Shown: positions 1,922-61,572 of the stretch, in pieces | Position numbering within the stretch: the stretch's first letter is position 1 | Layout of the letters: each line of letters begins with the position of its first letter | Source of the DNA: Escherichia phage slur02 | Direction: 5' to 3' (one strand) | Sequence record: NC_028927.1 | Length of the DNA: 64,000 bases | Notes under the pieces: generated by a model | What the model was told of the DNA's origin: nothing | The model's input: only the letters and a program-made list of their open reading frames with translations | The model's database searches: none | Position numbers and translations under genes: made by a program

Positions 1922-2071
1922 TTACTGCATGACTGTGATAACTGTCATGATAACACGTTGAATTCCGAACGCAAGAAGACCTCCTGCTACGGCTGGAACA
2001 ACGCCTAAACCCGCCAGTAAAATGCTACCGGATACTAATGCAGCGCTTGTAATACCAATGAATGGACTCAT
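1922..2071 (-). CDS. small hydrophobic membrane peptide (49 aa)
   Basis: ORF below track cutoff, MSPFIGITSAALVSGSILLAGLGVVPAVAGGLLAFGIQRVIMTVITVMQ; ATGA overlap with gene 52 stop; hairpin terminator follows. Confidence 0.4.
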   Translation of the reverse strand: MSPFIGITSAALVSGSILLAGLGVVPAVAGGLLAFGIQRVIMTVITVMQ

Positions 2072-3396
2072 TTGATTTCCTCTAAATCTTTAGTGTATTC
2101 AGTAACTACATCAGTAGTTTTCCAATATTCGTTTTCTTCTTTCTTAGCTTTAGCTTCTTCAGCAAGTTTCTTCGCTTCATCGGAAGTCATATGAAAAATA
2201 TTCATTCCAACTAGTTTATCAACATAAGAAGAATACATATCGATTTTCGAAAGTTCTTCGGTCAGTTCTTTACGAGTTTTACCTTGTACAACAATTTCAC
2301 CTGAAATTACTTTCTTAATGAAATGTGCCTTGGCAAAGGCTAAACGAAAAGCTGACTCAGTTTCTTTGATTTTGTTATCAATTCGTTTTTGGACATAAGT
2401 TTTACGAACTTCAACAAAGTCTTTAATTAAATCGACTACGTTATCGTAAACTTGTAGCTTTCCTTTCTCATTAATAACGGTAATATTTTGGGAACGACGC
2501 TCAATCAACCCAAAGTCTTTCATAATTTTTGCATGGCGTTCTTCTTCATTATCGCTCAAAGAATATTCTTTACGGAATTTAACTTTAAAGCCAAAACCAT
2601 GCTCACCACAAGCATCATCCCATGTAATGAAGCCTTTATCTTCAAGTGGGTCTAAGATTTTACTCACATAAGTTTCACGATCATACTTATACGGAATCTC
2701 AGTGATGTGCATTTGAGTTCGTGAAGTAAACTTATATGTTCCACGAATTTCATATTGTCCATCAATTTCAACGACTTCACCACGAAATTCTGGGAATTCT
2801 ACCTTCGGTTTAGTTACTTTCTTTCCTTGAAGAGCTTGTAGTACAGCTTTCTTGACAGAAGAAACACTATGAGGAAGAATGTAAGTTGCATAACCAGTTG
2901 CAATACCGGAAACGCCATTAAGAAGAACAGTAGGAATAATAGGCAAATAGAAAGCAGGCGGAATGTGTTCTTTATCTTGATGTACCGGAGCATACTCAGT
3001 ATCTTTATATACGTTATAGAAATTTTTACTTACACGAGCAAAAATATAACGACTTGCTGCTGCTTTTTGGACAGTACGAGAACCAAAGTTTCCTTGACCA
3101 TCTAACAGAGGAAAGTTATTATTCCAAGTGTTAGCCATCAAAGCACCTGCGTCTTGCGCAGAGTTTTCACCATGATGATATCCAAGGTCCGCTACACCAC
3201 CTGCAATAGAAGCGAGTTTGTGAAACTTATCTTTATTTCCTCGTGCCAAATCAAGAGCTCGAGCAATAACAAATCGTTGAACTGGCTTAAATCCATCAAT
3301 CATATTTGGAATAGCACGATTTTCAACCGTGTACATAGCATAAGCCAATGCTTCATTATCAATGATACTTTTTAAATCGCGATTATTCAGTTGCAT
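2068..3396 (-). CDS. 52: DNA topoisomerase II medium subunit gp52 (GyrA-like)
   Basis: 442 aa, same length as T4 gp52; GyrA-like N-terminus (AIPNMIDGFKPVQRFV). Confidence 0.9.
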   Translation of the reverse strand: MQLNNRDLKSIIDNEALAYAMYTVENRAIPNMIDGFKPVQRFVIARALDLARGNKDKFHKLASIAGGVADLGYHHGENSAQDAGALMANTWNNNFPLLDGQGNFGSRTVQKAAASRYIFARVSKNFYNVYKDTEYAPVHQDKEHIPPAFYLPIIPTVLLNGVSGIATGYATYILPHSVSSVKKAVLQALQGKKVTKPKVEFPEFRGEVVEIDGQYEIRGTYKFTSRTQMHITEIPYKYDRETYVSKILDPLEDKGFITWDDACGEHGFGFKVKFRKEYSLSDNEEERHAKIMKDFGLIERRSQNITVINEKGKLQVYDNVVDLIKDFVEVRKTYVQKRIDNKIKETESAFRLAFAKAHFIKKVISGEIVVQGKTRKELTEELSKIDMYSSYVDKLVGMNIFHMTSDEAKKLAEEAKAKKEENEYWKTTDVVTEYTKDLEEIK

Positions 3397-4238: not shown

Positions 4239-4298
4239 ATTAATTTCCTCTAAATTATTTTCTACTCCAAGGCCGCATAAATACACACGGCCATTAAA

Positions 4299-4514: not shown

Positions 4515-4517
4515 AAT

Positions 4518-4631: not shown

Positions 4632-4828
4632 TATTTTACACCATTCCAAATTGTTTCAACCACAGATTTTAAACCATTTTGATGAATATCAATTCCGACT
4701 ACTGTCATCAAATAGATTCCAACTACAACTGAACCTAAGGCAAAAATCAGCATGAAAATGAATAAAGCCGGAAAAATATTATCGAAAAACCATTCAATAA
4801 ATGTAAAAGCACTGCGTTTACGCTTCAT
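4631..4828 (-). CDS. small membrane protein (65 aa)
   Basis: Track ORF trimmed to ATG with GAGGA SD (MKRKRSAFTF...); hydrophobic helix. Confidence 0.4.
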   Translation of the reverse strand: MKRKRSAFTFIEWFFDNIFPALFIFMLIFALGSVVVGIYLMTVVGIDIHQNGLKSVVETIWNGVK

Positions 4829-4835
4829 ATTTTCC

Positions 4836-4949
4836 TCACATAAATCCAAAGTAAACGTTTAATACATCAATCATTAAAACGATTGGGAATATACTCAAAA
4901 CTATTAGTATTATAACTACATTCCATATAGCTTTAATAATCTTTTTCAT
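4836..4949 (-). CDS. small membrane peptide (37 aa)
   Basis: MKKIIKAIWNVVIILIVLSIFPIVLMIDVLNVYFGFM; the longer track ORF contains an early promoter, so start moved to ATG after GGAGGAACAG. Confidence 0.35.
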   Translation of the reverse strand: MKKIIKAIWNVVIILIVLSIFPIVLMIDVLNVYFGFM

Positions 4950-5192
4950 TTTCTGTTCCTCCGTAGTTGATAGGGTAATAATACCACGGAAGAACAGTCC
5001 TGTAAACAACTTTTTTAAAAATATTCGTAATAAATGTGAATACCAACTACTACCGCTGAAACCTGTGCAACCCACCACGCACAAGCAATAAGTACAGAAT
5101 TCATAATTTTCATAATAACCTCATCACAAAAGTAAATGTTAAACAAATTACTGGAATACTAATTAACCAAACAAAACACCACCATAGTGAAC

Positions 5193-5465
5193 TCATAGCT
5201 CAATCTCAGCGATTTTCATTTCATTACTATTAATAGCCGCTTTAAGACTATCTGAAAGAATTACATTCCAGTGGTCATTCATATGACCATTAATTAAGCG
5301 TGTAATTTCTTCTGGAGTTGAAAAATAAGGCGTATCAGACTCCCAATGCGATAATCCTAAGCGAGTATAAATCATACCTTCATCATCGCTAGAATATTCA
5401 ACTGACACAAACTCATCAGTTATTTTATGTTTAGCGTAATAAAATTTAAATTTCATTTTACTCAA
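5193..5465 (-). CDS. hypothetical protein (90 aa)
   Basis: Track ORF; ATGA overlap with upstream ORF. Confidence 0.5.
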   Translation of the reverse strand: MSKMKFKFYYAKHKITDEFVSVEYSSDDEGMIYTRLGLSHWESDTPYFSTPEEITRLINGHMNDHWNVILSDSLKAAINSNEMKIAEIEL

Positions 5466-5668
5466 TAATCCGCTAAAAGATCGACGATTGCATCACGAAG
5501 ACACTTATTCGCAATACGTTTAAGAGCAATTTCAGTTTCTGGAGCATTTTGAATAATCATCGAATTCAACTCAGCCTCAGCAAACTGAAGTTCTTTAACT
5601 AGTTCAGCTTTATATTTCCCTTGCCCTTTCTTAGCCTTTGCCCGTTTTAATTCAGCTGTAGTAAACAT
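5462..5668 (-). CDS. hypothetical protein (68 aa)
   Basis: Track ORF trimmed to ATG after conserved leader TTGGAGAATAAAATG. Confidence 0.5.
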   Translation of the reverse strand: MFTTAELKRAKAKKGQGKYKAELVKELQFAEAELNSMIIQNAPETEIALKRIANKCLRDAIVDLLADY

Positions 5669-7770: not shown

Positions 7771-7781
7771 AATTTTCCTTA

Positions 7782-9959
7782 TTAGGCCGCAAGGGCCTTC
7801 ATAGTTTTAGCGATTTGGGAAACTTCATCATCACTTAAAGAGTTGCGATAACCGATGAAGTCGGAAACAATACGGAATTTCTTGGTAAACTCAGCAACCA
7901 TTTTATCACTGTTTTTTGAAGCATTATTTGATAATACATCAAAAAGATTAGTTACTGTCCAGATGTCATGACCAATGGTATCTTTTCCACCATTAAAATA
8001 TACACCGCGCAATGAACTAACTATATTAGCGAGTCGTGTATATTCTTCAGAAACTTCATCTGTGCTGAAGTACTTCATCATAAAATCTAGTTCAGGATAC
8101 TTGATAATTTTATCAATATATCGTTGAGCTGAACTTGAATAACCTACGTACTTATCATAATCTACATCATCAAAAGCATCTACATATAAATCGCGCAAAG
8201 CTTCAAAAATACATTGGCACTGACCGAGTTCTTTTACCTTTTTCTGCAAAAGCGGACGAATAACATAAAACTCATTAATGCCAATAATATTAGCCATACG
8301 AATCAAAATATTCATAGATGGATGACAAAGAGATGTAGTACCATCCATAGAGAAAATATCAGAACGATGCATATACGCTACATAACCAGTAATTTCATCT
8401 GCTTCTGATGTGAGCGTAAATAATTCCTCTTTTTCCCAGCGCCCGTCTTTAATTTCAAACTTAAATGCTGTAGCAGCTTTAGGACGAGGAGCTTTACTTT
8501 TAACTACCTTTGGAATATAGCTTTTAACTAAAGCTTCAATTTCTGACAAATAATGAATGTTAACTTCATCACTTTCAAACATCGCCATAATATCAGGGAG
8601 TAAATCAATCTGCGATTCTACTTCTGGATTAATAAACAGAAGACGCTCATTATGATGAATATTCAGAGTGTTATTAAATTCACTATCATCTAACGCACGT
8701 GCTAATCCACGGACAATATTAACACGATTTTTAATATTATCAATAACGATATTAATTTTTGTTGTATTAATACCAAACAGACGATAACTTGATGCAACGG
8801 CTGAAGTTTCATGACTTTGCTTAATGCGCTTCAGTCGAGGGTCAAGATTTACTTCATACACAACTCCCGCGTTGCATAACTTACTGTCAGGTTCAAACAT
8901 GCTCTGCATCTTTTTATATGACAGATTTTTAGTCGTGAATTTGACTGAATTGCTAATCATATAATCTCGAGCAGAATACCCCATCTTCATCAATTCACGG
9001 TATGTATGACGAGGAGATGTAGATTCTTTAAATCGTTTTACATCTTCATTAAATGCTTTCTCACTGAGTTCTTTAACTCGTTCAATAATATTTTTACGAG
9101 TACGATCATCCAGTGAAAGAGCCTCGCGAGATGGAGCAATATCAAGCGAACCCATTGGAAACTTAATGTAATTCACTTCATTGCGGATGCTTAACCAGTT
9201 ACGGTCTCTAATAACACCATCGATAGGATAAACAATACCGCCGTAGATAGCATATAATCCACCACGATCTGGCCAGTATCTTTCTGGATTTACACCGTAA
9301 TAATCATCAAAATCCGGAAAATAATCAATTTCGCGGTCAAGACCATTAATGATAGCCAAATCTTTGAACGGTCGCATGATATAAGAAACTTCATAAGCAA
9401 AGTTTCTAAAGTCTTTTTCTTCAACTGGAACTACGATTTCAATACCAGTTTTATCATCTGGACCCATTTCTTTTACGAATGTAGGTTTAATCTGTGGACC
9501 ATCACCATCCATATAAGCTACATAACCACGAATTTCACCTTTATGATACGAAGTAATACTAAATGTATCAGTATAACTAAACGGAGATTTAGAACCTAAA
9601 CCAAATCCGCCAATGAAATCGTTAGATTCAGCCTTAGATGAACTGAAGTATGAATTATACAGACCAGGAGAATTATCATCACCCTGAATATCAAAATCAC
9701 TCATACCGGGACCAAAATCTCGGCAAACAAATCGTGGATCTAAACGTCCAGGAACTTGTATGATAAATTTTTCAGGATTTCCATTGAGTGCATGGGCATC
9801 AATCATGTTGGTAATCAATTCACGGACTACTGCGCGAATTTTGTTTGTATACAAATCAGATGACAGAATTTTAAATACTTTAGGAGATGCTGTGATGCTA
9901 AATGCTTTTGATTTAGAACCATTACCAAGAATTGTTTCTTTTTCAGTGGTGATAATCAT
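7782..9959 (-). CDS. rIIA: RIIA protein (GHKL ATPase-like N-terminus)
   Basis: 725 aa, same length as T4 rIIA; motif [11 protein letters not shown]. Confidence 0.9.
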
Positions 9960-9969
9960 AATTTCCTCA

Positions 9970-10173
9970 TTAATTCATATTACGCTTAATAACTTCAGCA
10001 ACTTCTAGTAGTTCATCTTTAGTTGCGGTGTCGGATTGAATTTTATCTCTAATATCTTTAAAGCGGTTTTTAAACTCTTCGGCTTCTCCCATATCGAAAA
10101 AGCGTTGAATAATTCTATATTCTCGATGAACTGCTTTATCAAAAAGTTCTAAATTTACTTTATATGATTTCAT
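9970..10173 (-). CDS. hypothetical protein (67 aa), rIIA.1 position
   Basis: Track ORF; early promoter upstream at about 10195-10230. Confidence 0.55.
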
Positions 10174-10191
10174 TTCAATATCCTCATTTGC

Positions 10192-10234
10192 CCAATTAAT
10201 TATACCACATCCTTGTGGTAAAGTAAACTACTGG
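10192..10234 (-). promoter_or_regulatory. early promoter upstream of rIIA.1/rIIA
   Basis: GTTTAC, 17 nt, TATAAT with TG upstream; palindromic spacer CCACAAGGATGTGG. Confidence 0.6.
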
Positions 10235-12048
10235 CTCATCCATTCTTTACGAAGGTCAGCATTATCTCCCATGAGCATTTCAAAAAGCTCTTTCCAGTTC
10301 TCAGGAAGTTTAACAACATCATATACTGGATTTTGAATCATCTCACGATATTCAGATTTTTCCAAAGAGCCAAGTCCTTTAATATAACGGATGCTATGTT
10401 TAGGTAGAGCATCTTTGGCACTCTCATATTCAGCGACTGTATAAAACCATTCTTGTTTTTTACCGACCTGAGCGATGATTACCGGAGTTTTGACAAAGCG
10501 AATTCGTCCTTGCTCAAACAATTCTGGCCAATTACTAAAAAACCCGAGCAGAGAAGGATAAATGCTTCCTAGACCATCATGGTCAGCATCAGTCATAATA
10601 GCAATATTGCGATAATTCAAGTTTTCAGCTTTTTCACCAAGAACTAGACCAGTGATTGCGCAAATATCAAATAGTTCTTTGTTTTTAAGCATATCAGCAT
10701 ATGACATACCCCAACTGTTGAGAACTTTACCACGCAATGGATAACCACCATGAAGTTCTTTATCACGAACATCAATAAGATATCCGATAGCCGAATCACC
10801 CTCAGTCAGGAAAAGAGTAGTGTCAGCATCTTTACCACAAAGATTCGCTTTGATATGTTTATGAACTTTAGCTTTAGAAGCCTTTTTAGCTGCTTTAGTT
10901 TCAGCTGCTTTTTCTGCTGCCAATTTACGGGCCAAGGCAGCTTCAATAATTGGCATCAAAATAGCTTCATTATTTAGAATAGCGCGTGAAATCTTTTTAG
11001 CATCAAGCTGAATATGACTACGAATTTCGCCAAATGGAGAAGTCAAACGCTCTTTAGTTTGAGAATCAAATCGCATGTTTTTCATATCACGAACAAACAT
11101 AACGATAGTCAAACATTCTTTAACACGTGCTTTAGTTACATCAATTTTGAATTTACGTTTGATTTGTGGAATAAGGTCTTCACAAATATCATCCATAACG
11201 CAGTCAATGTGATGGCCACCATTCTTAGTGTGAATGTTATTCACATAAGTTAATTGACGAAATCCATCCGGTGAACGACCAACCGCAATAGAACAATTTT
11301 CTTGTTCTTGAACAATAGCATGTTCATCATACTGTCGTGCATATTTCTTAAAATTGCCCTGAACCTTTTTACCATTAAAGGTAAATTGAATATCAGGATA
11401 AACAACAGCAAGTGTCTGGAGACGATCTAGTGTAATGTCAAGATAAACTTGGGACAGCTCATTAGTTTCAAATGACATAAAATCAGGAATGAAAGTAACA
11501 CGAGTTCCTTTCCATTTTCCAGGAATAGTTTCCCAGGATTTATTTTCCATGCCATTTGAACAACGAACTACAATATTATTTTGACCATCGCCAGTTTCAC
11601 CGACAAACATCACAGAAAAAATGTTAGTTAAACTAGAACCAACACCATTCATACCACCGGTGACGCGTTCTTTATCATCACCAAAGTTACCACCTGCTTT
11701 TGGAATAGTCCAAGCAGCAACTGGGCCAGGAATTTCTTCACCGGTAGGTGTTTTAACCATCGCTTGTGGAATACCGCGACCGTTATCTTCAACTGTTACC
11801 TGATTATTTTTAATGGTAACATTAATTTTATTTGCGAATTTAAACTTAGTACGAATACCTTCATCTACTGAGTTATCGATAATTTCATCAATAAGCTTAA
11901 CAAGACCAGGTACATACTGAACACTTTCCCATTTACCAAACAGAAAGCGCTCATGCATTTCATTAGCTGAAGAGCCAATGTACATGCCGCTACGCTTTTT
12001 GATATGTTCAATATCGCTCAGAATTTTAATTTCATTCTTAATCATCAC
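10228..12048 (-). CDS. 39: DNA topoisomerase II large subunit (GyrB-like), uninterrupted
   Basis: 606 aa; GHKL ATPase motif EIIDNSVDE and Toprim LTEGDSA; one continuous ORF with no gene 60 split. Confidence 0.9.
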   Translation of the reverse strand: MMIKNEIKILSDIEHIKKRSGMYIGSSANEMHERFLFGKWESVQYVPGLVKLIDEIIDNSVDEGIRTKFKFANKINVTIKNNQVTVEDNGRGIPQAMVKTPTGEEIPGPVAAWTIPKAGGNFGDDKERVTGGMNGVGSSLTNIFSVMFVGETGDGQNNIVVRCSNGMENKSWETIPGKWKGTRVTFIPDFMSFETNELSQVYLDITLDRLQTLAVVYPDIQFTFNGKKVQGNFKKYARQYDEHAIVQEQENCSIAVGRSPDGFRQLTYVNNIHTKNGGHHIDCVMDDICEDLIPQIKRKFKIDVTKARVKECLTIVMFVRDMKNMRFDSQTKERLTSPFGEIRSHIQLDAKKISRAILNNEAILMPIIEAALARKLAAEKAAETKAAKKASKAKVHKHIKANLCGKDADTTLFLTEGDSAIGYLIDVRDKELHGGYPLRGKVLNSWGMSYADMLKNKELFDICAITGLVLGEKAENLNYRNIAIMTDADHDGLGSIYPSLLGFFSNWPELFEQGRIRFVKTPVIIAQVGKKQEWFYTVAEYESAKDALPKHSIRYIKGLGSLEKSEYREMIQNPVYDVVKLPENWKELFEMLMGDNADLRKEWMSQ

Positions 12049-12072
12049 TTATCCTCGTTTGGTTTCGGGAAT

Positions 12073-12098
12073 ATTATACTCCAGTAATCATAAAGCTA
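12073..12098 (-). promoter_or_regulatory. MotA-dependent middle promoter candidate for gene 39
   Basis: MotA-box-like AGCTTTA, 12-nt spacer, TATAAT; immediately after UUCG hairpin. Confidence 0.5.
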
Positions 12099-12115
12099 AA
12101 GGCCCGAAGGCCTTT
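12098..12115 (-). terminator. UUCG-tetraloop terminator downstream of lipoprotein gene
   Basis: AGGCC-UUCG-GGCCU then UUU. Confidence 0.55.
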
Positions 12116-12384
12116 TATTTAAAACGGATAGTCGAATCCTTGAAGAATAGACCAGAACATACTGTTCCTTCTACTTTCTGCCCAGTAGGTCCAACAGCAC
12201 GAAATCCAGTGTGTTGGAAATCATTTTCAGAGCAACCGAACCAGTTATATCCAGTGATTTCAATATTAGTAAAACCGCTTGAAGATAAAACTTTGGTTGC
12301 ATTATCAGCATCAGTACATCCTACTAAAGATACTGCTAATACTAATGCTGCAATAGAACGATTAATATATTTCATAATTTTCAC
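12115..12384 (-). CDS. small lipoprotein (89 aa)
   Basis: Signal peptide with lipobox (LVGC); terminator hairpin downstream. Confidence 0.6.
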   Translation of the reverse strand: MKIMKYINRSIAALVLAVSLVGCTDADNATKVLSSSGFTNIEITGYNWFGCSENDFQHTGFRAVGPTGQKVEGTVCSGLFFKDSTIRFK

Positions 12385-15525: not shown

Positions 15526-16209
15526 TTATCGTTTTGTTGGAAGAGATAGAGGATCGCACTCTTCCTCTGACGGAGCATCTTCAAGACCCATAGCATATCG
15601 CAAAGCATACTTCATCATCAGGATGTCTTTCGCACAATCATGAATAGAATCATGCGCAACGAATCCATCTAAAGTTCCCTTTGGAAGAGGACATGTAGTC
15701 ATATCACGAACAAGCAGAAGTGCTTCAATTCTGGTACGAATATCACGCTGATTCCAGAATTTACAAGGTTCTAACTTAAACGTATCAAGCTCATTCTCAG
15801 AAACGCCATTAAGACGTTGAATATCGCGAATGAGATCGACTAAAATTGGAAAATCAAACGACATTCCACGGCACCAACCTTGAGATTTCCAAGGATCGAT
15901 ATTATGCGCATTGATGTAATCATTAAATTTTGCAATACCATCGATAGTGCTTACATCTTCATCTGATGGTGCAATATTTTTTCGAGCTTCAGGAGATTGA
16001 TTTTTCCACCATTCGATAGTGCTTTTAGTAAAAAGACGATGTCCCTTTTGGCTTTTTAAATCAAACTTGATTTTAATGCCGCGTGAAACTAATTCATCAA
16101 AGGATTCAACTACTTCTGGATTAGGGTCAAAGGCAATAACAGCCAAATCAATAACAGCTGCCTTTTCACCGCTTCCCATTGTTTCAAAATCTATAATAAA
16201 ATCAAACAT
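15526..16209 (-). CDS. dexA: DexA, exonuclease A (DnaQ-like 3'-5' exonuclease)
   Basis: 227 aa as in T4 DexA; Exo I motif DFETMG near N-terminus. Confidence 0.8.
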   Translation of the reverse strand: MFDFIIDFETMGSGEKAAVIDLAVIAFDPNPEVVESFDELVSRGIKIKFDLKSQKGHRLFTKSTIEWWKNQSPEARKNIAPSDEDVSTIDGIAKFNDYINAHNIDPWKSQGWCRGMSFDFPILVDLIRDIQRLNGVSENELDTFKLEPCKFWNQRDIRTRIEALLLVRDMTTCPLPKGTLDGFVAHDSIHDCAKDILMMKYALRYAMGLEDAPSEEECDPLSLPTKR

Positions 16210-16484
16210 TAAATTTTCCTCGCTAAATCGCGAATTTGACCTACAGTATAATCTTGGATATAAACTTTATTAATGGGCTCATCAATAAATTTTGCCATAG
16301 ATTCAATATCTTTTTGTATCTCTTCAAGACTGTATACTATCTTTAAAGCTTTTTCGCGAATAGTAACATTATCAGGTCCTGGATTTTCCTCAATGACAGC
16401 TTTGACATTTGTCATAAGAGATTTAAACTGATGCAAACTTAATTCAATCATTAATAATCGCCTTATAAAGATGGCTAATTTCAC
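16209..16484 (-). CDS. hypothetical protein (up to 91 aa), paralog of 16444..16704
   Basis: Shared motif LEEI..D.......I.DY..G.I..L; start uncertain. Confidence 0.45.
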   Translation of the reverse strand: MKLAIFIRRLLMIELSLHQFKSLMTNVKAVIEENPGPDNVTIREKALKIVYSLEEIQKDIESMAKFIDEPINKVYIQDYTVGQIRDLARKI

Positions 16485-16704
16485 CTAAAATGTAATCACT
16501 GATTGTAACAGTTTTTACTTCACCACAAAAGAATTCTAACGCAATCAAATCTCGTTCAATTTCTTCCAATTGAAGCATTAACTTGCCTGATTCAATTTTT
16601 ACATTTCTGCGATTTTTACTATAAGCTATTTCATATATTTCGCTCACTTTATCTTGAAGTAGATAAAACTGGTCTTTAGTTATTTCCACGAATAGCTTCC
16701 TCAA
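16444..16704 (-). CDS. hypothetical protein (86 aa), paralog of 16209..16484
   Basis: Track ORF; sequence similarity to neighbour. Confidence 0.45.
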   Translation of the reverse strand: MRKLFVEITKDQFYLLQDKVSEIYEIAYSKNRRNVKIESGKLMLQLEEIERDLIALEFFCGEVKTVTISDYILGEISHLYKAIIND

Positions 16705-16710
16705 ATTTAA

Positions 16711-22891: not shown

Positions 22892-23101
22892 TTAAATTAC
22901 AAGACTATTTATAATAAATTCTTGCGGAACGTTAAAATACCCAATTTTAGTTAATATAACAACATCACCGTTAATAATTACCGGAGAATAATCGGCTGGA
23001 GCATTAAACTTCCAGTGGGCTCTAATATTATATCCATCAGAACCAAATGCTCGACTAGCAGGTCTACCGGCTTTTTGCCATGCATAAAAATCAAATTTCA
23101 T
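22892..23101 (-). CDS. hypothetical protein (69 aa)
   Basis: Track ORF. Confidence 0.45.
   Translation of the reverse strand: MKFDFYAWQKAGRPASRAFGSDGYNIRAHWKFNAPADYSPVIINGDVVILTKIGYFNVPQEFIINSLVI
22903..22915 (-). promoter_or_regulatory. late promoter of soc
   Basis: TATAAATA on minus strand about 30 nt upstream of soc ATG. Confidence 0.6.
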
Positions 23102-23301
23102 TTTGAATGCTCTATAATTAATTTTAAGGCTTCTTCATGCAACCACTTACCTGGTATATGTCCAGTTTTAATTGTGTGAGCTTTGCGGAGCTGATTAGAT
23201 AAGAGCTCACATATGAGCTCTTTGTCATAATTTTTAAATAGCTGGTCAATACGTTTCTTGCGGGCTTTCTTAAGCTGACGTTTATTTAAACGAGCCATCA
23301 A
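23098..23301 (-). CDS. hypothetical basic protein (67 aa)
   Basis: Track ORF; ATGA coupling. Confidence 0.45.
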   Translation of the reverse strand: MMARLNKRQLKKARKKRIDQLFKNYDKELICELLSNQLRKAHTIKTGHIPGKWLHEEALKLIIEHSK

Positions 23302-23816
23302 TAACCTCGGTCTTGACGAGCAAAGTTTTCAGCATTTTTCAGATAATAAAGTTTAAAGATTTCTTCAGCCGTAAGACCGAGACCTTGGAACATGTTCAGA
23401 ACGAAATGAAGAATATCAATCATTTCGAATTTAATTTCCAACTGGTCTTGTGGAGACAAATCAGTAATTAGAGTTTCACGACGTTCACCATGCTGTGACT
23501 TCCAAGGTTTCCATACAGCAGATGCATCTTTTTCACCATTGCTCATACCGCCAAGAGAAGTCAGAAGTTCACGGAATTCATCATCAATGTAATCTTTCTG
23601 ATTACGCAGCCAATCAACAACTTCGCCTGCAGTAGCCAAATCATCAGGATGACGGTTATATTCAGGTTTATCTTTAGCTAAACGAATCTGCAGAGATTTC
23701 TGCATGTCAAGCATTACCTGCAGCGGGTCTTTTTCATCACCGAGAATATCCCAATATTCATTTTGAGCTTTATCAGCGCCTTCAATCAGTTGTGAACATT
23801 CATTAAAATATGCCAT
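23298..23816 (-). CDS. 56: gp56 dCTPase/dUTPase (MazG-like NTP pyrophosphatase)
   Basis: Track ORF trimmed to MAYFNEC... start with AAAGGAAAAATA SD; about 172 aa. Confidence 0.85.
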   Translation of the reverse strand: MAYFNECSQLIEGADKAQNEYWDILGDEKDPLQVMLDMQKSLQIRLAKDKPEYNRHPDDLATAGEVVDWLRNQKDYIDDEFRELLTSLGGMSNGEKDASAVWKPWKSQHGERRETLITDLSPQDQLEIKFEMIDILHFVLNMFQGLGLTAEEIFKLYYLKNAENFARQDRGY

Positions 23817-28919: not shown

Positions 28920-30075
28920 TTAACTGTTCGAGGTCAGTTTCTAAATCAGCAGCTGATTTACTTTTACTTTCTGGAGATTTAAATTTTTCAACCTTTGAGT
29001 TAATCAATTCATCAACTTCAGCTTCAACAATTTCATTACTATCAATAGCACCTAACTGATAAGCACGTTTAATAGCATCTCGGAATGGTTGATGCTTAAA
29101 TAAAGGACCCCAGAATGTAGTGCAGTTGGTATCTTTTGCACGCCAAGATTTTTCTTCGCGAATCATCTCGCCGGTTTCTTCATCAAGAAATTCGCGAGCA
29201 TACCAGCCATTTTTTGGTTTTACTACAAATCCTAATTCTAGAGCCATATCTAACAATCCAGAATAAGGATCGATACCACCGTCAAATTTAACATCAATAA
29301 AGAATTTACTTTTTTCTTTAACGGTACGAGATTTTTCTACATTTAGAACAAATTGATACCCCTGAAGATCAGAACCATCTTTAATCTGGCGTTTACCGAT
29401 AATGAATACGGTATCAGCCGAATACATTACGCCTGTACCACCTGTCATCACGGTTTTACTAAACATTTCAATTGTTTCAATTGTATGGTTAACCGCAACA
29501 CATGGAATATTTTTAATGCTAAAATAAGGAGTAACAATACGGAATAATGACTTCAGTGATTTAGCACGAGTCATATCTGCCACAGATTTTTCATTCAAGG
29601 CATCTTCCGTTTCTTTCTTAGAAGCCATATTACCGATTGAGTCGATGAATACAATAACCTTTTCACCACGCTCAATAGCTTCAAGCTGATTCACCATGTC
29701 AATTTTCAGTTGTTCAACTGACTGGATTGGTGTATGAATTACTCGTTCCGGGTCAACTCCCATGGATCGCAAATAAGCTGGAGTAATACCAAATTCGCTA
29801 TCATAGAATAGACAAACCGCGTCAGGATATTTGTTCAAATATGCCGCAACCATAGTCAAAGACATATTTGATTTAAAGTGTTTAGAAGGCCCTGCGAAAA
29901 TAGTTAAACCAGACTGCATACCGCCATCAATCGCACCAGAAATAGCGATATTAAGCATTGGGATTTTTGTACGGATTACATCCTTTTCATTAAAGAATTT
30001 AGATGTAGTCAGTTCAGCAGTCATTTTAGAAGTGGAAGCTTTAATCAAACGGGATTTTAAATCTGCAATAGACAT
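28894..30075 (-). CDS. uvsX: UvsX recombinase (RecA-like)
   Basis: 393 aa; Walker A GPSKHFKS. Confidence 0.9.
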   Translation of the reverse strand: MSIADLKSRLIKASTSKMTAELTTSKFFNEKDVIRTKIPMLNIAISGAIDGGMQSGLTIFAGPSKHFKSNMSLTMVAAYLNKYPDAVCLFYDSEFGITPAYLRSMGVDPERVIHTPIQSVEQLKIDMVNQLEAIERGEKVIVFIDSIGNMASKKETEDALNEKSVADMTRAKSLKSLFRIVTPYFSIKNIPCVAVNHTIETIEMFSKTVMTGGTGVMYSADTVFIIGKRQIKDGSDLQGYQFVLNVEKSRTVKEKSKFFIDVKFDGGIDPYSGLLDMALELGFVVKPKNGWYAREFLDEETGEMIREEKSWRAKDTNCTTFWGPLFKHQPFRDAIKRAYQLGAIDSNEIVEAEVDELINSKVEKFKSPESKSKSAADLETDLEQLSDMEEFNE

Positions 30076-30128
30076 TCATTTTTTCCATAGGCATCATTAT
30101 ATTTTCCTCACTGGTTAAAGATAGAGTA

Positions 30129-30154
30129 ATTATAACACAATAAATTTAGGCATT
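30129..30154 (-). promoter_or_regulatory. middle promoter candidate for uvsX
   Basis: ATGCCTAA box-like element about 11 nt upstream of TATAAT. Confidence 0.35.
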
Positions 30155-31001
30155 AATCAACTGCTATTGGATGAATAGCATTAAACTTATGAAATGCTTC
30201 TGATTTTTCTTTACGCGAAACACACATGCGAAGAACCTTTAGTGGTTCATCTTCTTCACCCAACGATTTTCGTTTTTCAATATTCGATGTTTTCCAACGA
30301 GCTTGCTCTGGAAACTCTCTATTGATTTGCTCAAGCGCTCTATTATGTTTAGAATTACTGCGAATTGAACTACATCCGCCAGGAGCTTGTGCTTTTCCAG
30401 ATACAACCAGATATTTGAACAAGGCCAAATGCGGATAACCTTGATTAATTAAATTGAGAAATGCATACATATCTTCGCATAAATCAATTTTTCCATACCC
30501 AATTTGTTCTGTCGTAAGTTTTCCGAGGTCATACCATGTATTCGTGAATCCATATGAATTTTCACGATAATTACCCCAAGATGAAGTAATTTTAAAAATA
30601 GGTAGACGAGCATGGCCATGATAATACCCGCAATCCATAGCATCCTCAACATATTGAATCAATTCATAGAACTGTTCACGAGTCAATTGATTAATTTTAT
30701 CTACACAACGACGATCATCTCTTTTTCGCATTGAACTCATACGAATAGTAGTATCATCGTCAATCATCCAAATTCGTTGACCTGCATACATATCAGTAAT
30801 TGCTTTACGAGTTCCAGCAATTCCATTTACATCATCAGGAATAGTTATAATTTTAGCTCTAGACCCATAGGCATCATAATAAGCTTTTTCTTCGTGTTCA
30901 CGTACTACAATATGTGGTTCATAATCAGTCGGAAACATATCAAGGGCAGAAACTGCCCCTACACGTTGATAGCTTGGAATTACGAATTGAATCATTTCCA
31001 C
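30153..31001 (-). CDS. putative GT-A-fold glycosyltransferase (candidate DNA glucosyltransferase)
   Basis: 282 aa; IPSYQR strand and IDDD (DxD) motif; occupies the beta-gt position between uvsX and 42. Confidence 0.5.
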   Translation of the reverse strand: MEMIQFVIPSYQRVGAVSALDMFPTDYEPHIVVREHEEKAYYDAYGSRAKIITIPDDVNGIAGTRKAITDMYAGQRIWMIDDDTTIRMSSMRKRDDRRCVDKINQLTREQFYELIQYVEDAMDCGYYHGHARLPIFKITSSWGNYRENSYGFTNTWYDLGKLTTEQIGYGKIDLCEDMYAFLNLINQGYPHLALFKYLVVSGKAQAPGGCSSIRSNSKHNRALEQINREFPEQARWKTSNIEKRKSLGEEDEPLKVLRMCVSRKEKSEAFHKFNAIHPIAVD

Positions 31002-31732
31002 TCACCGTTATAATCTTTTTTCACAATATGAGTTTCGCCAGTATTCCACCAATGATCAACCAAGTAAAAATGACGAGAATATACATGAAGACTTCCAACA
31101 TTCCATATAATAGAACCTGCTTTATACTGACGAGTTGAATCGCCTGCATTCAAATCAGATACTAATTTATCTAATACGTATTTTTGCCATGCATAATCAT
31201 TACGGAATCCGAAGACCACGTCATTTGAGCGCATGCTTACTACTGCATTGACTTTCTTATCACGAATCAGGTATTGTACTGTATTAGTACACATGAAATC
31301 TGACATGCCATCTTTATTGTAGTCAAATTGCATGGATGGACGAGTATAAATCATGATACCACGTCGAGAATCAGGGTTTTGACCAAGTTCAGCTAAACAC
31401 ATATCATACTGGGCATAGTTATCTTCTGACCAAATAGCCCAACCATAATTTGAGTTAATTTCACCTTTAGAAGATGCTACCTGCTGCCAAATCTTTGGTG
31501 TTTCACCTGGAATATCTTTAACAAACAAGCTTTTAGATTTATACCATTCAAGTTCACGCTGAATGTATTCATCATTAAGAGCGCCAAAAATAAACGGTTC
31601 ATCTGCTACAAATGATGCGCCAATAATTTCAATAGTTTTAACACCAGTTTTATCAACTACGAAATCTTTTTCTTTTAATGCAATCCCCAAATGAAGACGG
31701 ATTTCTTCAACTGTCATAGAGTCATTAATCAT
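30992..31732 (-). CDS. 42: gp42 dCMP hydroxymethylase
   Basis: 246 aa as in T4 gp42; thymidylate-synthase-like. Confidence 0.9.
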   Translation of the reverse strand: MINDSMTVEEIRLHLGIALKEKDFVVDKTGVKTIEIIGASFVADEPFIFGALNDEYIQRELEWYKSKSLFVKDIPGETPKIWQQVASSKGEINSNYGWAIWSEDNYAQYDMCLAELGQNPDSRRGIMIYTRPSMQFDYNKDGMSDFMCTNTVQYLIRDKKVNAVVSMRSNDVVFGFRNDYAWQKYVLDKLVSDLNAGDSTRQYKAGSIIWNVGSLHVYSRHFYLVDHWWNTGETHIVKKDYNGEWK

Positions 31733-42381: not shown

Positions 42382-43582
42382 ATTTTGTAATAATGTCAAA
42401 CTGTTCTTTAAAGCAGAAGCTTGAATCTTGATGCTGATACAAAAATTCATACGCTTTTTCTCGCTCACGGTCATAAAGAGCTCGGTCAGATGACAGTTCT
42501 TTAATACGTTCAAACGTTGATTCCATATCATTTTCATCAAACCAAACGATACCGCTATCATGCGAGGTCAAAGGAGTATTATCAACACGGAATTTTAAAT
42601 TTTCGCCAGTAGATTTCCAAAATACCGGAATTGTTCCACATGCACCAAGCTCGAGGTGAGTATATTCTAAAGAGCGCTGTAAATATTTTTTGTCCAACTT
42701 ACTCAACTGATAACCAAATCCGGATTTACTCATACGTTCAAGCATTTCGCTATTTACATAACGGTCAAGAATTTGCGTTGGCAAATTAGGAGCAATTTTA
42801 ATTTGGTCTACTTGATGAAGACGATAATACTCGTATGGAATTCCTTTTTCTTTAATAGGAATGAACGCTGGAGAACGTTCCAGACCTTCCATAATAGTAC
42901 TTAGTCCTGCAGGTTTAAGATGTTTTTCGTGAAAATCAAACATCTGATAAAAACCTTTCCATGTAGTCGTACGACCAATCCAGCGGTTGATATTCATATT
43001 AATTTCAGAAACATCTTTCCAGTAGGTTGACCGAACCTTCGCAATATCCATAGGAGGCTGAAAGTTATATACTGTCGGCGCTTCTTCAATATCATCAAAC
43101 AAAGAAACTGTTTCAGGATACCATTCTTTCATCAGAACTTTATTAAAATCACCATTATCAGAATGGCTAAAAATAACATCAGCTCGACGAACAGTTTCTT
43201 CTAATCCCAAATTTCGACGCAAAGAAAGAGAAGAATGGTCATGCTGATAAACTACAACACGAACAGAAGGTTTAATGTTATCAATAATTTTTTTATAGTT
43301 ATTAATAGTGTCTTCTTCAACCGAAGTAGCAGGAACTGAATTGATAATTAGAATATCACAATCATTTACCAGCTTAAGTGTTTTATCGTATTCTTTTGAC
43401 AATAAAACCGGAATTGAAAATGATTTATAATCATGTGCACAGTTACGAGTAAATGATTTATCTTTAGCATAAACCAAAGTTACTTCATGACCATTTTTAA
43501 TAAACCAATCACGTTGCTCAAGAGAAAATTTAGTTACACCACAACCTTCAAGACCTCGAGCCATAAAAATACATACTTTCAT
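42380..43582 (-). CDS. agt: alpha-glucosyltransferase
   Basis: 400 aa as in T4 a-gt; N-terminus CIFMARGLEGCGVTKFSLEQRDWF. Confidence 0.9.
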   Translation of the reverse strand: MKVCIFMARGLEGCGVTKFSLEQRDWFIKNGHEVTLVYAKDKSFTRNCAHDYKSFSIPVLLSKEYDKTLKLVNDCDILIINSVPATSVEEDTINNYKKIIDNIKPSVRVVVYQHDHSSLSLRRNLGLEETVRRADVIFSHSDNGDFNKVLMKEWYPETVSLFDDIEEAPTVYNFQPPMDIAKVRSTYWKDVSEINMNINRWIGRTTTWKGFYQMFDFHEKHLKPAGLSTIMEGLERSPAFIPIKEKGIPYEYYRLHQVDQIKIAPNLPTQILDRYVNSEMLERMSKSGFGYQLSKLDKKYLQRSLEYTHLELGACGTIPVFWKSTGENLKFRVDNTPLTSHDSGIVWFDENDMESTFERIKELSSDRALYDREREKAYEFLYQHQDSSFCFKEQFDIITK

Positions 43583-43825
43583 TTAATATCCTCTTTGTTT
43601 TGGTTTATTTTACCAAAATTTTATAAAGCAATATAGGAGCCGAAGCTCCTATCCACATAATACGCCATACAGAGGCTCATTAGAACTTTTAAATTTTATG
43701 CGCTTATATTTTATAGTTCCTTCTGCTTTAGCTTTATCATGAGACTCTTTAAAGAGTCTCATCATTTCCTCTTTAGAGGAACGAATTTTATTATAATCTA
43801 TTTCAGAAGTCTGGGTGTTCATCTT

Positions 43826-47918: not shown

Positions 47919-48389
47919 TTAATCATGTTTCCACACCCCATCGGTATTTGACCAAAGTCGCTGATTATCTGATCCTCGCCACAGCTTTTTAGTCGGAAGA
48001 TTTTTCTCATACTTCCCATCAATAATAACATCAACATATTTAAGCATTTCTAGTTGTTTAATATCTTCAAACTTATATCCTGTCCACAACCAAATGCTTT
48101 TATTGGGATAAAGATTTTTTACTGTTTGAACCACAGAGTGAATCACATCTCTGTTATCAGGATAAAGAGGGTCACCCCCAGTTATAGTTAATCCTTCTAT
48201 ATAATCATTATTCAAACATTCAATTAATTGTTCTAGTGTTTCACCAGTGAATGGAACACCATTTCTAGCATTCCATGTTGATTTATTATAACACCCTTCG
48301 CATTTATGCAAACAACCCGTAACGAAAAGAACGACCCTGCAACCAGGGCCATTCACAAAATCGCAAGGATAAAATCTATCATAATTCAT
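47919..48389 (-). CDS. nrdG: NrdG, anaerobic ribonucleotide reductase activating enzyme (radical SAM)
   Basis: 156 aa; cysteine cluster CLHKCEGC. Confidence 0.9.
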   Translation of the reverse strand: MNYDRFYPCDFVNGPGCRVVLFVTGCLHKCEGCYNKSTWNARNGVPFTGETLEQLIECLNNDYIEGLTITGGDPLYPDNRDVIHSVVQTVKNLYPNKSIWLWTGYKFEDIKQLEMLKYVDVIIDGKYEKNLPTKKLWRGSDNQRLWSNTDGVWKHD

Positions 48390-50203
48390 TGGTGTTTAAC
48401 CCTATGCATGATTTCTTTATTTTTACCGAGATTAAATCCGCGTTCGTTCGGATTTCCCAAATAACCACATGTTCTTCTTATTGTGTTCATCTTTTTAGGA
48501 TCAGTTTCTCCACAGATAGAACAAACAAATCCGTTTTCAGTAGGAGTCATTTCATGGGTACTTCCGCATGTAAAACATTTATCTACTGGCATATTAACAC
48601 CAAAATAATCTAAATGTTGTGCAGCATAATCCCAGACGGCCTCAAGCCCCTTTAAATTGTTTTTCATATCAGGAAGTTCAACATAAGAAATGTGACCACC
48701 TGTCGCAATGAAATGATATGGCGCTTCACGAGAAATCTTTTCAAACGGAGTAATATTTTCTTCTACTGAAACATGGAAACTGTTAGTGTACCAGCCTTTA
48801 TCGGTAACATCCTTTACATTTCCGTATTTTTCTGTATCGAGTTTACAGAAGCGATAACAAAGGTTTTCAGCAGGAGTAGAATATAAACTAAAAGCAAATC
48901 CGGTTCTTTCAGTCCACTGTTTAAGATGAGCATTCATTTTAGTTAAAATTTCTCGTCCAATATCACGACCGACAAGAATATTCAATTCGTGAATACCAAT
49001 GTATCCTAAAGACACTGAACTTCTACCGTTTTTAAATAACTCAATTATGTCGTCATCAGGTTTAAGACGAACCCCGAATGCACCTTCTTGGTAAAGAATA
49101 GGAGCAACAGTTGCTTTAACTCCTTTTAAGGAACTAATTCTACACATCAAAGCTTCAAAACATAAATCCATTCGTTCATTGAACAATTCGATAAATTTCT
49201 GTTCATTGAACTGTGTTCCAATATAAGAATCTAATGCGATACGAGGAAGATTCAGTGTTACAACACCGAGATTATTACGTCCATCAAGAATTTCATTGCC
49301 AGTCGAATCTTTCCATACGCCCAAGAAACTACGGCAACCCATTGGAGAAACAGGAACAGATGAACCAGTGATAGCTTTATTATTCTTAGCTGAAATAATA
49401 TCAGGATACATCCTTTTGCTTGCGCACTCTAGAGCAAGTTGCTTAATGTCGTAATTCGGATCGTCTTTATAAAGATTAACGCCTTCTTCAACGAACATAA
49501 CAAGCTTAGGGAAAATAGGAGTTATTCCATCACGACCAAGACCTTTAATACGATTTTTCAGAATTGCTTTCTGAATCATTCGTTCAGTCCAGTCAGTTCC
49601 CGTACCAAATGTAATTGTTACAAAAGGAGTTTGTCCGTTTGAACTAAAGAGAGTATTTACTTCATATTCATAAGCTTGGAATGCATCGTATACGTCTTTT
49701 TCTGTTTTAGATTGAGCATAATTCAGTGCATCGGCGATTTGCCATTTTTCTGCATCCTCAATATGTTTTGCATAGGTGCGTTTAACATAAGGAGAAAGTA
49801 CTTTATCTACATTCGCAAAAGTCGTTCCGCCGTATTGGTGAGAAGCAACCTGTGCAGTAATTTGTGCCATAATTGCAGTAGCAACTCCAATTGATTTAGG
49901 AGTTTCAATCTGTGCATTACCAAGCTTAAATCCGTTCTCAAGCATTCCTTTTAAATCTACTAAACAGCAATTAGTAAATGGAAGAGCAGGGGAATAATCA
50001 ATATCATGGAAATGAATAATTCCGCTTTCATGCGCTTTCATAATAAAAGACGGGACCATATTTTTGGCAATGTGTTTAGACACAATACCAGCCATAAGGT
50101 CCCGTTGAGTTGGAAAAACACGAGAATCTTTATTAGCATTCTCGTTTAAAAGGTCTTTATTAGTTTTATGAATCAATCCTTCAATTTCTTTTTCAATTGT
50201 CAT
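48386..50203 (-). CDS. nrdD: NrdD, anaerobic ribonucleotide reductase, intron-less
   Basis: 605 aa continuous ORF; C-terminal glycyl-radical motif RTCGYLG and zinc cysteines. Confidence 0.95.
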   Translation of the reverse strand: MTIEKEIEGLIHKTNKDLLNENANKDSRVFPTQRDLMAGIVSKHIAKNMVPSFIMKAHESGIIHFHDIDYSPALPFTNCCLVDLKGMLENGFKLGNAQIETPKSIGVATAIMAQITAQVASHQYGGTTFANVDKVLSPYVKRTYAKHIEDAEKWQIADALNYAQSKTEKDVYDAFQAYEYEVNTLFSSNGQTPFVTITFGTGTDWTERMIQKAILKNRIKGLGRDGITPIFPKLVMFVEEGVNLYKDDPNYDIKQLALECASKRMYPDIISAKNNKAITGSSVPVSPMGCRSFLGVWKDSTGNEILDGRNNLGVVTLNLPRIALDSYIGTQFNEQKFIELFNERMDLCFEALMCRISSLKGVKATVAPILYQEGAFGVRLKPDDDIIELFKNGRSSVSLGYIGIHELNILVGRDIGREILTKMNAHLKQWTERTGFAFSLYSTPAENLCYRFCKLDTEKYGNVKDVTDKGWYTNSFHVSVEENITPFEKISREAPYHFIATGGHISYVELPDMKNNLKGLEAVWDYAAQHLDYFGVNMPVDKCFTCGSTHEMTPTENGFVCSICGETDPKKMNTIRRTCGYLGNPNERGFNLGKNKEIMHRVKHQ

Positions 50204-59024: not shown

Positions 59025-60038
59025 TCATTTATAATAACTTCGGTGGTTTTCAAGATAAACCTGTTCGAGGAAATTATTCCAAAAGCTCATATCTACTGTT
59101 TTAGGCATACCATTCTTAGAAGCTTCAGTAGATGCTGCTTCTACTTGATCGACCACATCTTCCAAAAACTCTTGAACCGTTTTAAATGGATGTTTACCCA
59201 ACTTCACGTCGAGAATAAATGGAGCGTCTTGAAGTGGATAAACCAAGTCACCAGTTTTGTAAATTTCCAATAGTTGAAGTCCACCACGACAAGCATGGCT
59301 CAGAGCTTTCCAGTCAATGCCTTCATTGGCTTCGGCCTTTCGAGCGCGTTCACCATATTCAGCATCTAATTTGTTCAGTGACTGCTTAAGCTCAATAAGA
59401 GAAAGCGTTGTCTGATATTTACGACCCAACACTGTGTAAAACGTCTGTGGGCCTGTTTTCTCATGATTATGGAACACCCATTCACAGAATTCGTTTTCTG
59501 GAAGACGATGCTTAATATCTTCAACTTTAGTACGACGCTGCTTAATGGAACCGTCTTCTTGGTAATCAACCCATTGCTCAGGGATTTGATTAACTACTTT
59601 CAATACATCACGTAATGCAGCCAAACGAGAACCCTTGACACCGTATTTAGAAGCTTGCTTGCGGACATATCCTAAATAGGATTTCATGTTAGTCGTATAA
59701 AAACGAGAACGGTTGTCTTGAATAAACTTCCACACATCAGGCAAATCTGATTTAACTACTAGCTCAGGTGGAGTGTGAAGCATATCCAATGCTACGGTTT
59801 CACCATCTGCTGCTAATTTAAAGAAATATTTAAGACTGTATAGTTCATGGTCAATATCATCTTTAGTGTTTTTAGATGATGTATTGTTAGTATTTTTACT
59901 CATATGCTCTTTAACATTTCCGATAAGAATATCGCGAGCAGGAGGAACAAAGATTTCTTTAAAATCTACATCAGATTCTGGGGTAGAAGTTCCATAAAGA
60001 TGACTACCAAAATAGCTTTTCATTACTGTTTTCATCAT
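59025..60038 (-). CDS. predicted Pol-beta-superfamily nucleotidyltransferase (337 aa)
   Basis: N-terminal FGSHLYGTSTPESDVDF ([GS]-x10-DxD) with third acidic residue about 60 aa later (VALDMLH); ATGA-coupled to upstream membrane protein gene; strong terminator downstream. Confidence 0.55.
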   Translation of the reverse strand: MMKTVMKSYFGSHLYGTSTPESDVDFKEIFVPPARDILIGNVKEHMSKNTNNTSSKNTKDDIDHELYSLKYFFKLAADGETVALDMLHTPPELVVKSDLPDVWKFIQDNRSRFYTTNMKSYLGYVRKQASKYGVKGSRLAALRDVLKVVNQIPEQWVDYQEDGSIKQRRTKVEDIKHRLPENEFCEWVFHNHEKTGPQTFYTVLGRKYQTTLSLIELKQSLNKLDAEYGERARKAEANEGIDWKALSHACRGGLQLLEIYKTGDLVYPLQDAPFILDVKLGKHPFKTVQEFLEDVVDQVEAASTEASKNGMPKTVDMSFWNNFLEQVYLENHRSYYK

Positions 60039-60496
60039 TCAGCCTTATATTCAATAACAGGACATACTTTAGCTTTACGAGCTTTTAAAAATTCGACGAT
60101 AATCGATTTCTTGGGTTGAATAGGAGGTAAACCTTTATACGCTCTATCAATATTTTCTACGTGTAAAGCATAATCCTTTTTCCATTTATAATCTTTATAT
60201 TTTTCACGCAAATGTGCAGGAATAACAAATGAACCGATAATAAGTAAAACAACCAAAAGCGCAAGTATAAATGCTGATGGAAGCAAAGTCCATAAACTAC
60301 CGAAAATAAGCCAACGTTGTAGGCTTTCTGCACAAATAATTGTTAACCCTACGAGTATAGCACACCCAAAAATAGAAACGAAAAATGTAGGAATGGCAAT
60401 AGACCAAAAATATGCGCATAATGTCTTAGGTCGTTGCCATTCATCGTTAAACAATTTGAATAATTTATAGTGCCAAGAGTTTTCATTAATAATCAT
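60035..60496 (-). CDS. integral membrane protein (153 aa)
   Basis: Three predicted transmembrane helices. Confidence 0.5.
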   Translation of the reverse strand: MIINENSWHYKLFKLFNDEWQRPKTLCAYFWSIAIPTFFVSIFGCAILVGLTIICAESLQRWLIFGSLWTLLPSAFILALLVVLLIIGSFVIPAHLREKYKDYKWKKDYALHVENIDRAYKGLPPIQPKKSIIVEFLKARKAKVCPVIEYKAE

Positions 60497-60498
60497 AA

Positions 60499-61020
60499 TT
60501 ATCCTTTCATTGAAGGCGTAATGGTTGTTAAATACTTAATCATAGCTTCAGCTTCTGATTTTGATAATGAAATTTCTCCATTGTTTTGACGAATAGAAAT
60601 AAAATCCGGATGACGGTCACCACCAGCTTTTAAAACACACATATAAGTATCAACTTCACCTTCAATATTTGAAATGATTGAAGCAGTTCCACATGAATGT
60701 GGTTTTTGATAAATCAATGCAGCTTTTCTTCCACCATTTGACTGTTCATAGGCTTTTAATACATCAAACAAATCAGTTCTTTTATCAATAGCTAAAATGT
60801 TATTTTCATCTTCAATGTTAAATCCTTCGGATACTTCATAAAGCGTTACCCATAAATCACCGATGTCAATAACAGCATTTACTTTTCCACGGCTTTCAAG
60901 AGTATGACAAATTTTCTTGATTTCGTCATAACTCATTTTAATAATATCATCTCCTTGACTAAGGAAGATGTCATTTTTAAATTCAACACGAATTAAACCA
61001 CTTTCACTTGAAATAAACAT
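60499..61020 (-). CDS. hypothetical protein (173 aa), paralog of 61027..61572
   Basis: Shared C-terminal and central motifs with neighbour. Confidence 0.5.
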   Translation of the reverse strand: MFISSESGLIRVEFKNDIFLSQGDDIIKMSYDEIKKICHTLESRGKVNAVIDIGDLWVTLYEVSEGFNIEDENNILAIDKRTDLFDVLKAYEQSNGGRKAALIYQKPHSCGTASIISNIEGEVDTYMCVLKAGGDRHPDFISIRQNNGEISLSKSEAEAMIKYLTTITPSMKG

Positions 61021-61026
61021 ATTTCC

Positions 61027-61572
61027 TCACTTTGAAATCATAGTTGGAATAACAGAATCAAGATAAGTCTTTAGTGCAATAGCTTCGTCTTTGGTAAATG
61101 TGACAATATGTGCTCGAAAATCATCAATTTGACGAATAGTTAAGACATCTCCATCTTCATAACATTTTGATACGTTTAAAACAGTTTCATCATTCTGATT
61201 GCAAGCGTTAGTAATAATAGCATTGCAATTTTTAAACCATTTTAAACTATGTTTTCTTTCATTAGAATAATAAAAATATTTAATCTTATCTATAAAACTA
61301 TCCCAATGGATAACTGATAAGCATATTGACTCGCTTTCAATATTAAATCCTGGGCATGAAGAATAAAAATGAATTTTATGCTTATCATTAATGCTTACAA
61401 TTTTATCAGTATAAGGATTTTCAATTTTGGTTAAATGAATGATTTCACTAGGCGTAAAATACAGCATATCGTCTTCTTGTGTCAAACGATACATATTATT
61501 TACTTTTTCTATAGCCAATTCACCAAAAAGTGAACTAACTTCTAATACTAATCGTTTCGCCGCTACCGTCAT
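61027..61572 (-). CDS. hypothetical protein (181 aa), paralog of 60499..61020
   Basis: Track ORF; sequence similarity to neighbour. Confidence 0.5.
   Translation of the reverse strand: MTVAAKRLVLEVSSLFGELAIEKVNNMYRLTQEDDMLYFTPSEIIHLTKIENPYTDKIVSINDKHKIHFYSSCPGFNIESESICLSVIHWDSFIDKIKYFYYSNERKHSLKWFKNCNAIITNACNQNDETVLNVSKCYEDGDVLTIRQIDDFRAHIVTFTKDEAIALKTYLDSVIPTMISK

Follow-up and report, generated by a model that had tools for sequence, protein, structure and literature searches.

An uninterrupted, T2/T6-type topoisomerase gene 39 with an empty MobA homing site in Escherichia phage slur02

The window analysed here is a 64,000-nucleotide stretch of Escherichia phage slur02 DNA (NC_028927.1). 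Gene 39, which encodes the large subunit of the phage topoisomerase II, lies within it in the local gene order rIIB, rIIA (7782..9959), rIIA.1 (9970..10173), 39 and 39.1. The gene, the sites within and beside it and the gene of its partner subunit are as follows.

10228..12045, minus strand: gene 39, topoisomerase II large (GyrB-like) subunit, 605 aa from the ATG at 12045 (Pfam, T2/T6 alignment)
10564..10627, minus strand: empty MobA homing site, a 64-nt stretch of gene 39 (gene nt 1419-1482; blastn against T4, alignment)
10570..10575, minus strand: codons GGT-CTA (Gly491-Leu492), adjacent here (T4/T2 alignment)
12049..12114, minus strand: upstream intergenic region of gene 39, with a hairpin, TAGCTTTA, a spacer, TATAAT and GAGG (sequence inspection)
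2068..3396, minus strand: gene 52, the GyrA-like DNA-cleavage subunit and partner of gp39 (Pfam DNA_topoisoIV, 9.1e-77; annotation)

Gene 39 occupies a single open reading frame (10228..12048, minus strand) that counts 606 aa from a GTG, has no internal stop in the ORF listing or in its translation, and ends in its only stop codon. The 606 aa consist of 605 aa plus the GTG at 12046-12048, and the ATG at 12045 is the codon directly after it. This ATG has a GAGG 7 nt upstream, begins an N-terminus (MIKNEIK) found also in T4, T2 and T6, and is the annotated gene 39 start in the slur04 and slur13 records. Because of this ribosome-binding motif, the N-terminal match and the database annotation, the ATG at 12045 is most likely the true start, and the product would then have 605 aa, as does gp39 of T2 and T6. 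The original prediction of a single 606-aa GyrB-like ORF holds for the one stop-free frame, while its length should most likely be shortened to 605 aa.

Gp39 has the ATPase, transducer and TOPRIM domains of a B-type subunit of type IIA topoisomerases, and its partner gene 52 is present. Pfam placed HATPase_c (GHKL ATPase) at residues 48-150 (1.9e-9), DNA_gyraseB (PF00204, the transducer) at residues 251-385 (1.5e-13) and TOPRIM_C at residues 520-605 (4.3e-7). The TOPRIM E...DxD metal-binding motif is complete on one polypeptide, with E415, D486 and D488 all present; these are the metal-binding residues named for T6 gp39, in T6 numbering (PMC11461880).

The region upstream of the gene (12049..12114, minus strand) contains a GC-rich hairpin (AAAGGCCTTCGGGCCTTT), followed by TAGCTTTA, a spacer, TATAAT and the GAGG ribosome-binding site. 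It looks like a putative T4-type (MotA-dependent) middle promoter, and was not flagged by a simple sigma-70 scan. Right after the gene 39 stop, positions 10199-10227 (minus strand) contain a strong sigma-70-like promoter (TTTACT, 17 nt, TATAAT, with TG) that faces rIIA.1 and rIIA.

T4 gp39 and gp60 form the orthologous enzyme and are 98% and 95.5% identical to slur02 gp39 over the parts they have in common. Residues 1-473 of T4 gp39 align to window residues 2-474 with 98.3% identity, and residues 27-160 of T4 gp60 align to window residues 473-606 with 95.5% identity (both in the 606-aa numbering); the two alignments abut at residue 473/474 and leave no extra residues over. In the DNA, blastn matched window 7771-10563 to T4 1-2793 and window 10628-12377 to T4 3911-5661, and T4 nt 2794-3910 (1,117 nt) correspond to just 64 nt in the window, at 10564-10627. 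According to the T4 annotation, the 1,117 nt contain the gp39 C-terminal extension, the mobA pseudogene, 60.1, the gp60 N-terminus and the 50-nt bypass. The 64-nt stretch, conversely, is missing from T4-type phages, having been lost to the 1,117-nt MobA element.

In contrast to T4, slur02 gp39 has neither the 43-aa gp39 C-terminal extension nor the 26-aa unique gp60 N-terminus, mobA and 60.1 are lacking, and the gene, with 64 nt in place of 1,117 nt, has no GGA-UAG take-off site and no 50-nt gap. No mobA remnant was detected when the window was searched by tblastn with the T4 mobA fragment and gp60.1 (best E 0.76 or worse). At the bypass position T4 reads GAT GGA TAG, a 50-nt gap and TTA GGT, whereas the window reads GAT GGT CTA GGA without interruption; in T4 the equivalents of Gly491 and Leu492 are separated by the GGA take-off codon, the UAG stop and the 50-nt coding gap. 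The claim that T4 carries a gene split by a mobA cassette, with a 50-nt bypass, agrees with the T4 annotation and the alignments. The accompanying claim that slur02 gene 39 has no frameshift or bypass is likewise confirmed, as the frame is continuous and the codons at the bypass position are adjacent, and the proposed alignment against T4 genes 39 and 60 and against T2 found the gene uninterrupted and the cassette absent.

T2 gene 39 (LC348380, 2458..4275) has the same 1,818-nt length as the window gene and is 96.5% identical to it in nucleotide sequence. The two proteins differ at three residues, F70, T173 and R479 in slur02 being L, D and H in T2. The 64-nt segment at 10564-10627 shares 62 of its nucleotides with T2, which has served as the MobA target in experiments, and the 2-nt difference that falls inside the segment is the one that distinguishes R479 from H479. 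The best match to a solved structure is T6 gp39 (chain 8ylu_C, 1-605 to 1-605, 1,384.6 bits). Gp39 of T2 and T6 (structures 8YLU, 8YO5 and 8YOD) has the same 605 aa, domain order and E...DxD metal site as the window protein, and the neighbours rIIA, rIIA.1, 39 and 39.1 are common to them, only point substitutions differing. Bacterial GyrB and ParE and the N-terminal half of eukaryotic Topo II share the GHKL ATPase, transducer and TOPRIM architecture with gp39, but only at a distant level of sequence similarity (E about 1e-35 to 1e-60). Unlike gyrase, the phage topoisomerase relaxes DNA (relaxation assays in PMC11461880) and is not known to supercoil it.

Topoisomerase II of T2 and T6 is composed of two subunits, and that of T4 is the sole three-subunit type IIA enzyme (PMC11461880). 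The structure of the T6 topoisomerase has been solved by cryo-EM and its activity published, with relaxation assays (PMC11461880). By near-identity to this characterised enzyme, slur02 gp39 would supply the ATPase and TOPRIM functions and, together with gp52, would form a heterotetrameric type IIA, ATP-dependent DNA-relaxing topoisomerase II for phage DNA replication. We infer the enzymatic function of gp39 by homology to the solved T6 enzyme. Translation of gene 39 is conventional here and proceeds without recoding.

A 2.5-kb query around gene 39 was 100% identical to Escherichia phages slur04, slur11 and slur13 (Tequatrovirus, species slur02), and the ORF is an already known, annotated gene of a phage genome in GenBank (that of slur04 or of a sibling almost identical to it). 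Positions 3881-67880 of slur13 correspond to the entire window, the only difference being a 1-bp indel near window 36122. In a comparison of eight 8-kb blocks with slur04, across the junction of the linear record, seven were exact matches; the eighth block (window 16001-24000) spans the slur04 record ends, which overlap by 127 nt. The indel is one extra base in slur13 at about 36122 (3' end of gene 62), relative to both the window and slur04, which shifts later slur13 coordinates by 1 and alters the annotated gene 62 end. It is probably a sequencing or assembly difference.

The uninterrupted ORF could in principle be an assembly or annotation artefact that masks a real interruption, given that the slur records are short-read, draft-style assemblies, with the slur13 versus slur04 indel elsewhere and the 127-nt overlap of the slur04 record ends as visible irregularities. 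Three independent slur records agree across gene 39, however, and the same 1,818-nt gene runs without a break in hundreds of relatives sequenced independently, T2, RB14 and T6 among them, leaving this explanation with almost no probability.

The inserted MobA element is described as about 1.1 kb long and as deleting 55-75 nt of the gene (64 nt in the schematic example, for which phage HY01 is used); in the E. coli clade it extends 9 nt past the bypass, and 'parental' genomes are those without the insert (bioRxiv 10.1101/2022.08.31.505936). The configuration in the window is exactly the published 'parental' one, with a parental-type segment of about 64 nt present at 10564-10627. With a probability of roughly 0.96, slur02 gene 39 is such a 'parental' empty-site allele, in which the MobA element was never received or was cleanly lost: a T2/T6-type Tequatrovirus gene 39 encoding the GyrB-like ATPase/TOPRIM subunit of a two-subunit topoisomerase II. 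No evidence contradicting an intact gene 39 was found in this analysis.

A different history, 'hit and run', would have the MobA element once inserted and then excised, re-creating a fused ORF. Cases of this kind have been proposed for a clade of Aeromonas phages (bioRxiv 10.1101/2022.08.31.505936), and cassette-bearing, co-infecting relatives are common in the same genus. The Aeromonas cases, however, keep insert-derived C- and N-terminal extensions, whereas slur02 gp39 has 605 aa, colinear with T2 and T6, and nothing extra. The 64-nt segment is also of the parental type (62/64 as in T2) and not of the T4 homR type. CTE- or NTE-like residues and homR-type synonymous changes are absent around residues 466-492, and gp39 has no scars of insert-derived C- or N-terminal extensions, as judged by the T4 alignment and by a length equal to that of T2 and T6. 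Insertion followed by excision is thus extremely unlikely for this gene. A hit-and-run scar in gp39 was considered and rejected, the gene being colinear with T2 and T6.

The parental empty-site allele is also the frequent one among related phages. A search with the T4 junction segment (T4 2700-3900) matched 478 phage records, 41 of which have 80% or more of the cassette; a further record has 76%, and the remainder match flanking gene 39 sequence only. About nine-tenths of related phage records are thus, like the window, without the cassette, in a set of 478 that includes GenBank/RefSeq duplicates and many T4 laboratory isolates. The figure of 520 records with at least 80% coverage, from the gene 39 query, is not a count of uninterrupted genes, as split matches may be joined. 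The original prediction presented slur02 as a departure from T4, but the reverse holds: an uninterrupted gene is the usual, parental condition, and it is T4 that is recognised as the outlier (PMC2988022; bioRxiv 10.1101/2022.08.31.505936; record count).

By the literature, the 64-nt site at 10564-10627 would contain the MobA nick site, and on the published spacing the nick would fall near window 10593, some 20 nt upstream of the point at which the bypass is inserted. MobA nicking and conversion in mixed infection are reported to have been shown for T2 (ref. 19 of bioRxiv 10.1101/2022.08.31.505936). Since gene 39 of the window offers an empty site that is almost the same as in T2, MobA is predicted to home into this gene when a MobA-positive phage infects the same cell. 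The R479 codon (CGC) lies within the 64-nt target, about 15-20 nt upstream of the nick site on the published spacing. There is a slim chance that this allele might alter MobA recognition and help the lineage to stay cassette-free despite cassette-bearing relatives in the same hosts.

The T4 region that corresponds to the window contains seven selfish elements, none of which is present in slur02 according to the blastn map. The corresponding sites, together with nrdD, are as follows.

10564-10627, minus strand: site of the mobA cassette with its bypass site, 64 nt here
22914..23310, minus strand: T4 segF site, between soc and gene 56, with two small ORFs here (22892..23101 and 23098..23298)
30064..31009, minus strand: T4 segA and beta-gt site, with a 280-aa beta-glucosyl-HMC-alpha-glucosyltransferase here (30153..30995)
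43574..43597, minus strand: empty mobB site, 24 nt long, the T4 counterpart having 861 nt (blastn)
48369..48389 (approximate), minus strand: empty mobC site, nrdG and nrdD overlapping directly and T4 nt 42917-43517 having no counterpart
48386..50203, minus strand: nrdD, 605 aa, uninterrupted, with full NRDD coverage
About 49665-49668, minus strand: T4 insertion point of the nrdD intron with its endonuclease, an exon junction here (blastn map)
60040..61001, minus strand: T4 mobD site, with a 153-aa membrane protein (60035..60496) and a 173-aa y05I-like MobD.1 paralogue (60499..61020) here

The two ORFs at the segF site belong to DUF7422 and to PHROG 5773 and 5782, for which PHROGs gives the annotations head protein and virion structural protein. 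Neither ORF at the mobD site has a nuclease domain; the 173-aa y05I-like protein (60499..61020) and the MobD.1 homologue next to it (61027..61572) are paralogues. The glucosyltransferase at 30153-30995 (minus strand; PHROG 842, 6.9e-89; Pfam TAGT) replaces T4 segA and beta-gt, alpha-gt being kept, and points to DNA glucosylation of the T2/T6 type.

No T4 endonuclease was found in the window by tblastn with 15 T4 genes (including the mobA pseudogene fragment) and gp60.1, the best E value being 0.029. GIY-YIG and HNH profiles built from T4 proteins, which recovered every T4 member used in building them, gave no hit among all six-frame ORFs of at least 30 aa in the window (best E 0.6 or worse; HNH best E 0.62). 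The 13 window stretches without a blastn match to T4 contain 20 ORFs, none of which has a nuclease domain by Pfam and PHROGs; their matches are limited to DUFs, the glucosyltransferase, an AdfA-like fragment, a membrane protein and the y05I-like protein. Rfam gave no group I intron match in the window at the gathering threshold, and recovered the T4 nrdD intron used as positive control (RF00028, 105.3 bits). The original prediction had reported no GIY-YIG or HNH homing endonuclease genes and no nrdD intron. Within the 64-kb window it is correct on both, by tblastn, HMMs, Pfam/PHROGs and Rfam with working T4 controls, and the HMM check it had proposed for the two domains detected none there.

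Several other differences in gene content from T4 were observed in the window. The dam gene, located between genes 56 and 61 in T4, is absent from the gene 56/61 junction (window 23857-23876) and from the whole of slur04. Its absence was considered as an unusual feature and rejected as such, since the junction is contiguous in many relatives including RB14; a few relatives (FL08, vB_Eco-B1.1) have a homing endonuclease at this junction. An extra 118-aa ORF with no T4 counterpart lies between 61.1 and 61.2 (25282-25638, minus strand) and aligns with the C-terminal half of the AdfA profile in Pfam (anti-DarT factor A; 211 positions, 2.3e-8); the ORF may represent an anti-defence gene paralogue in truncated form. 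A small ORF at 51323-51532 (minus strand), in a stretch unmatched in T4, replaces T4 49.1-49.3; its Pfam match to the T7 gp5.9 RecBCD inhibitor is weak and below threshold (6.8e-4), and the RefSeq annotation there is antitoxin.

The same searches across the slur04 genome revealed a single GIY-YIG gene and a single HNH gene, neither of which lies within the window.

slur04 93677..94294, upstream of uvsW: SegE homologue, GIY-YIG, 99.5% identical to T4 SegE (Pfam SegE_GIY-YIG)
slur04 123350..123991, between nrdA and nrdB: full-length MobE-like HNH gene, 213 aa (Pfam HNH and NUMOD3)

The MobE-like protein is 64.7% identical to T4 MobE over 119 aa. Homologues of segB, segC, segD and segG are absent from the slur04 genome, and Rfam at the gathering threshold found no group I intron anywhere in it, its matches outside the window being tRNAs only. 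The suggestion that this lineage lacks the T4-specific selfish elements therefore stands for the seven of seven empty sites in the window and fails for the genome, where SegE and MobE-like genes occur elsewhere in slur04. A whole lineage free of homing endonucleases, for example through an active exclusion mechanism, would fit the empty window sites and the lack of group I introns, segB, segC, segD and segG in slur04; it is refuted by the SegE and MobE-like genes and is very improbable. T-even phages other than T4 typically have few endonucleases (PMC2988022). Slur04 is endonuclease-poor, not endonuclease-free, and a 64-kb window is too narrow a basis for conclusions on a whole lineage.

Around segE and uvsW, slur04 (NC_042130.1) positions 93368-96866 are 95-100% identical to T4 in 250-nt bins, mostly 98-100%, compared with 77-94% in the bins on either side. 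By this pattern of identity, the segment looks like a co-conversion tract from SegE-mediated homing.

The unsplit gene 39 is already known as the well-documented majority state of the T-even phages and is in this respect ordinary, the split, bypassing gene of T4 being the known exception. The slur02 gene confirms the textbook view in which T4 is the oddity, its split 39/60 and ribosomal bypass being derived and brought in by an element, and in which gene 39 stays intact in most of the T-even relatives. The only practical value of the slur02 gene is that of a further 'empty-site' reference allele in work on MobA homing.
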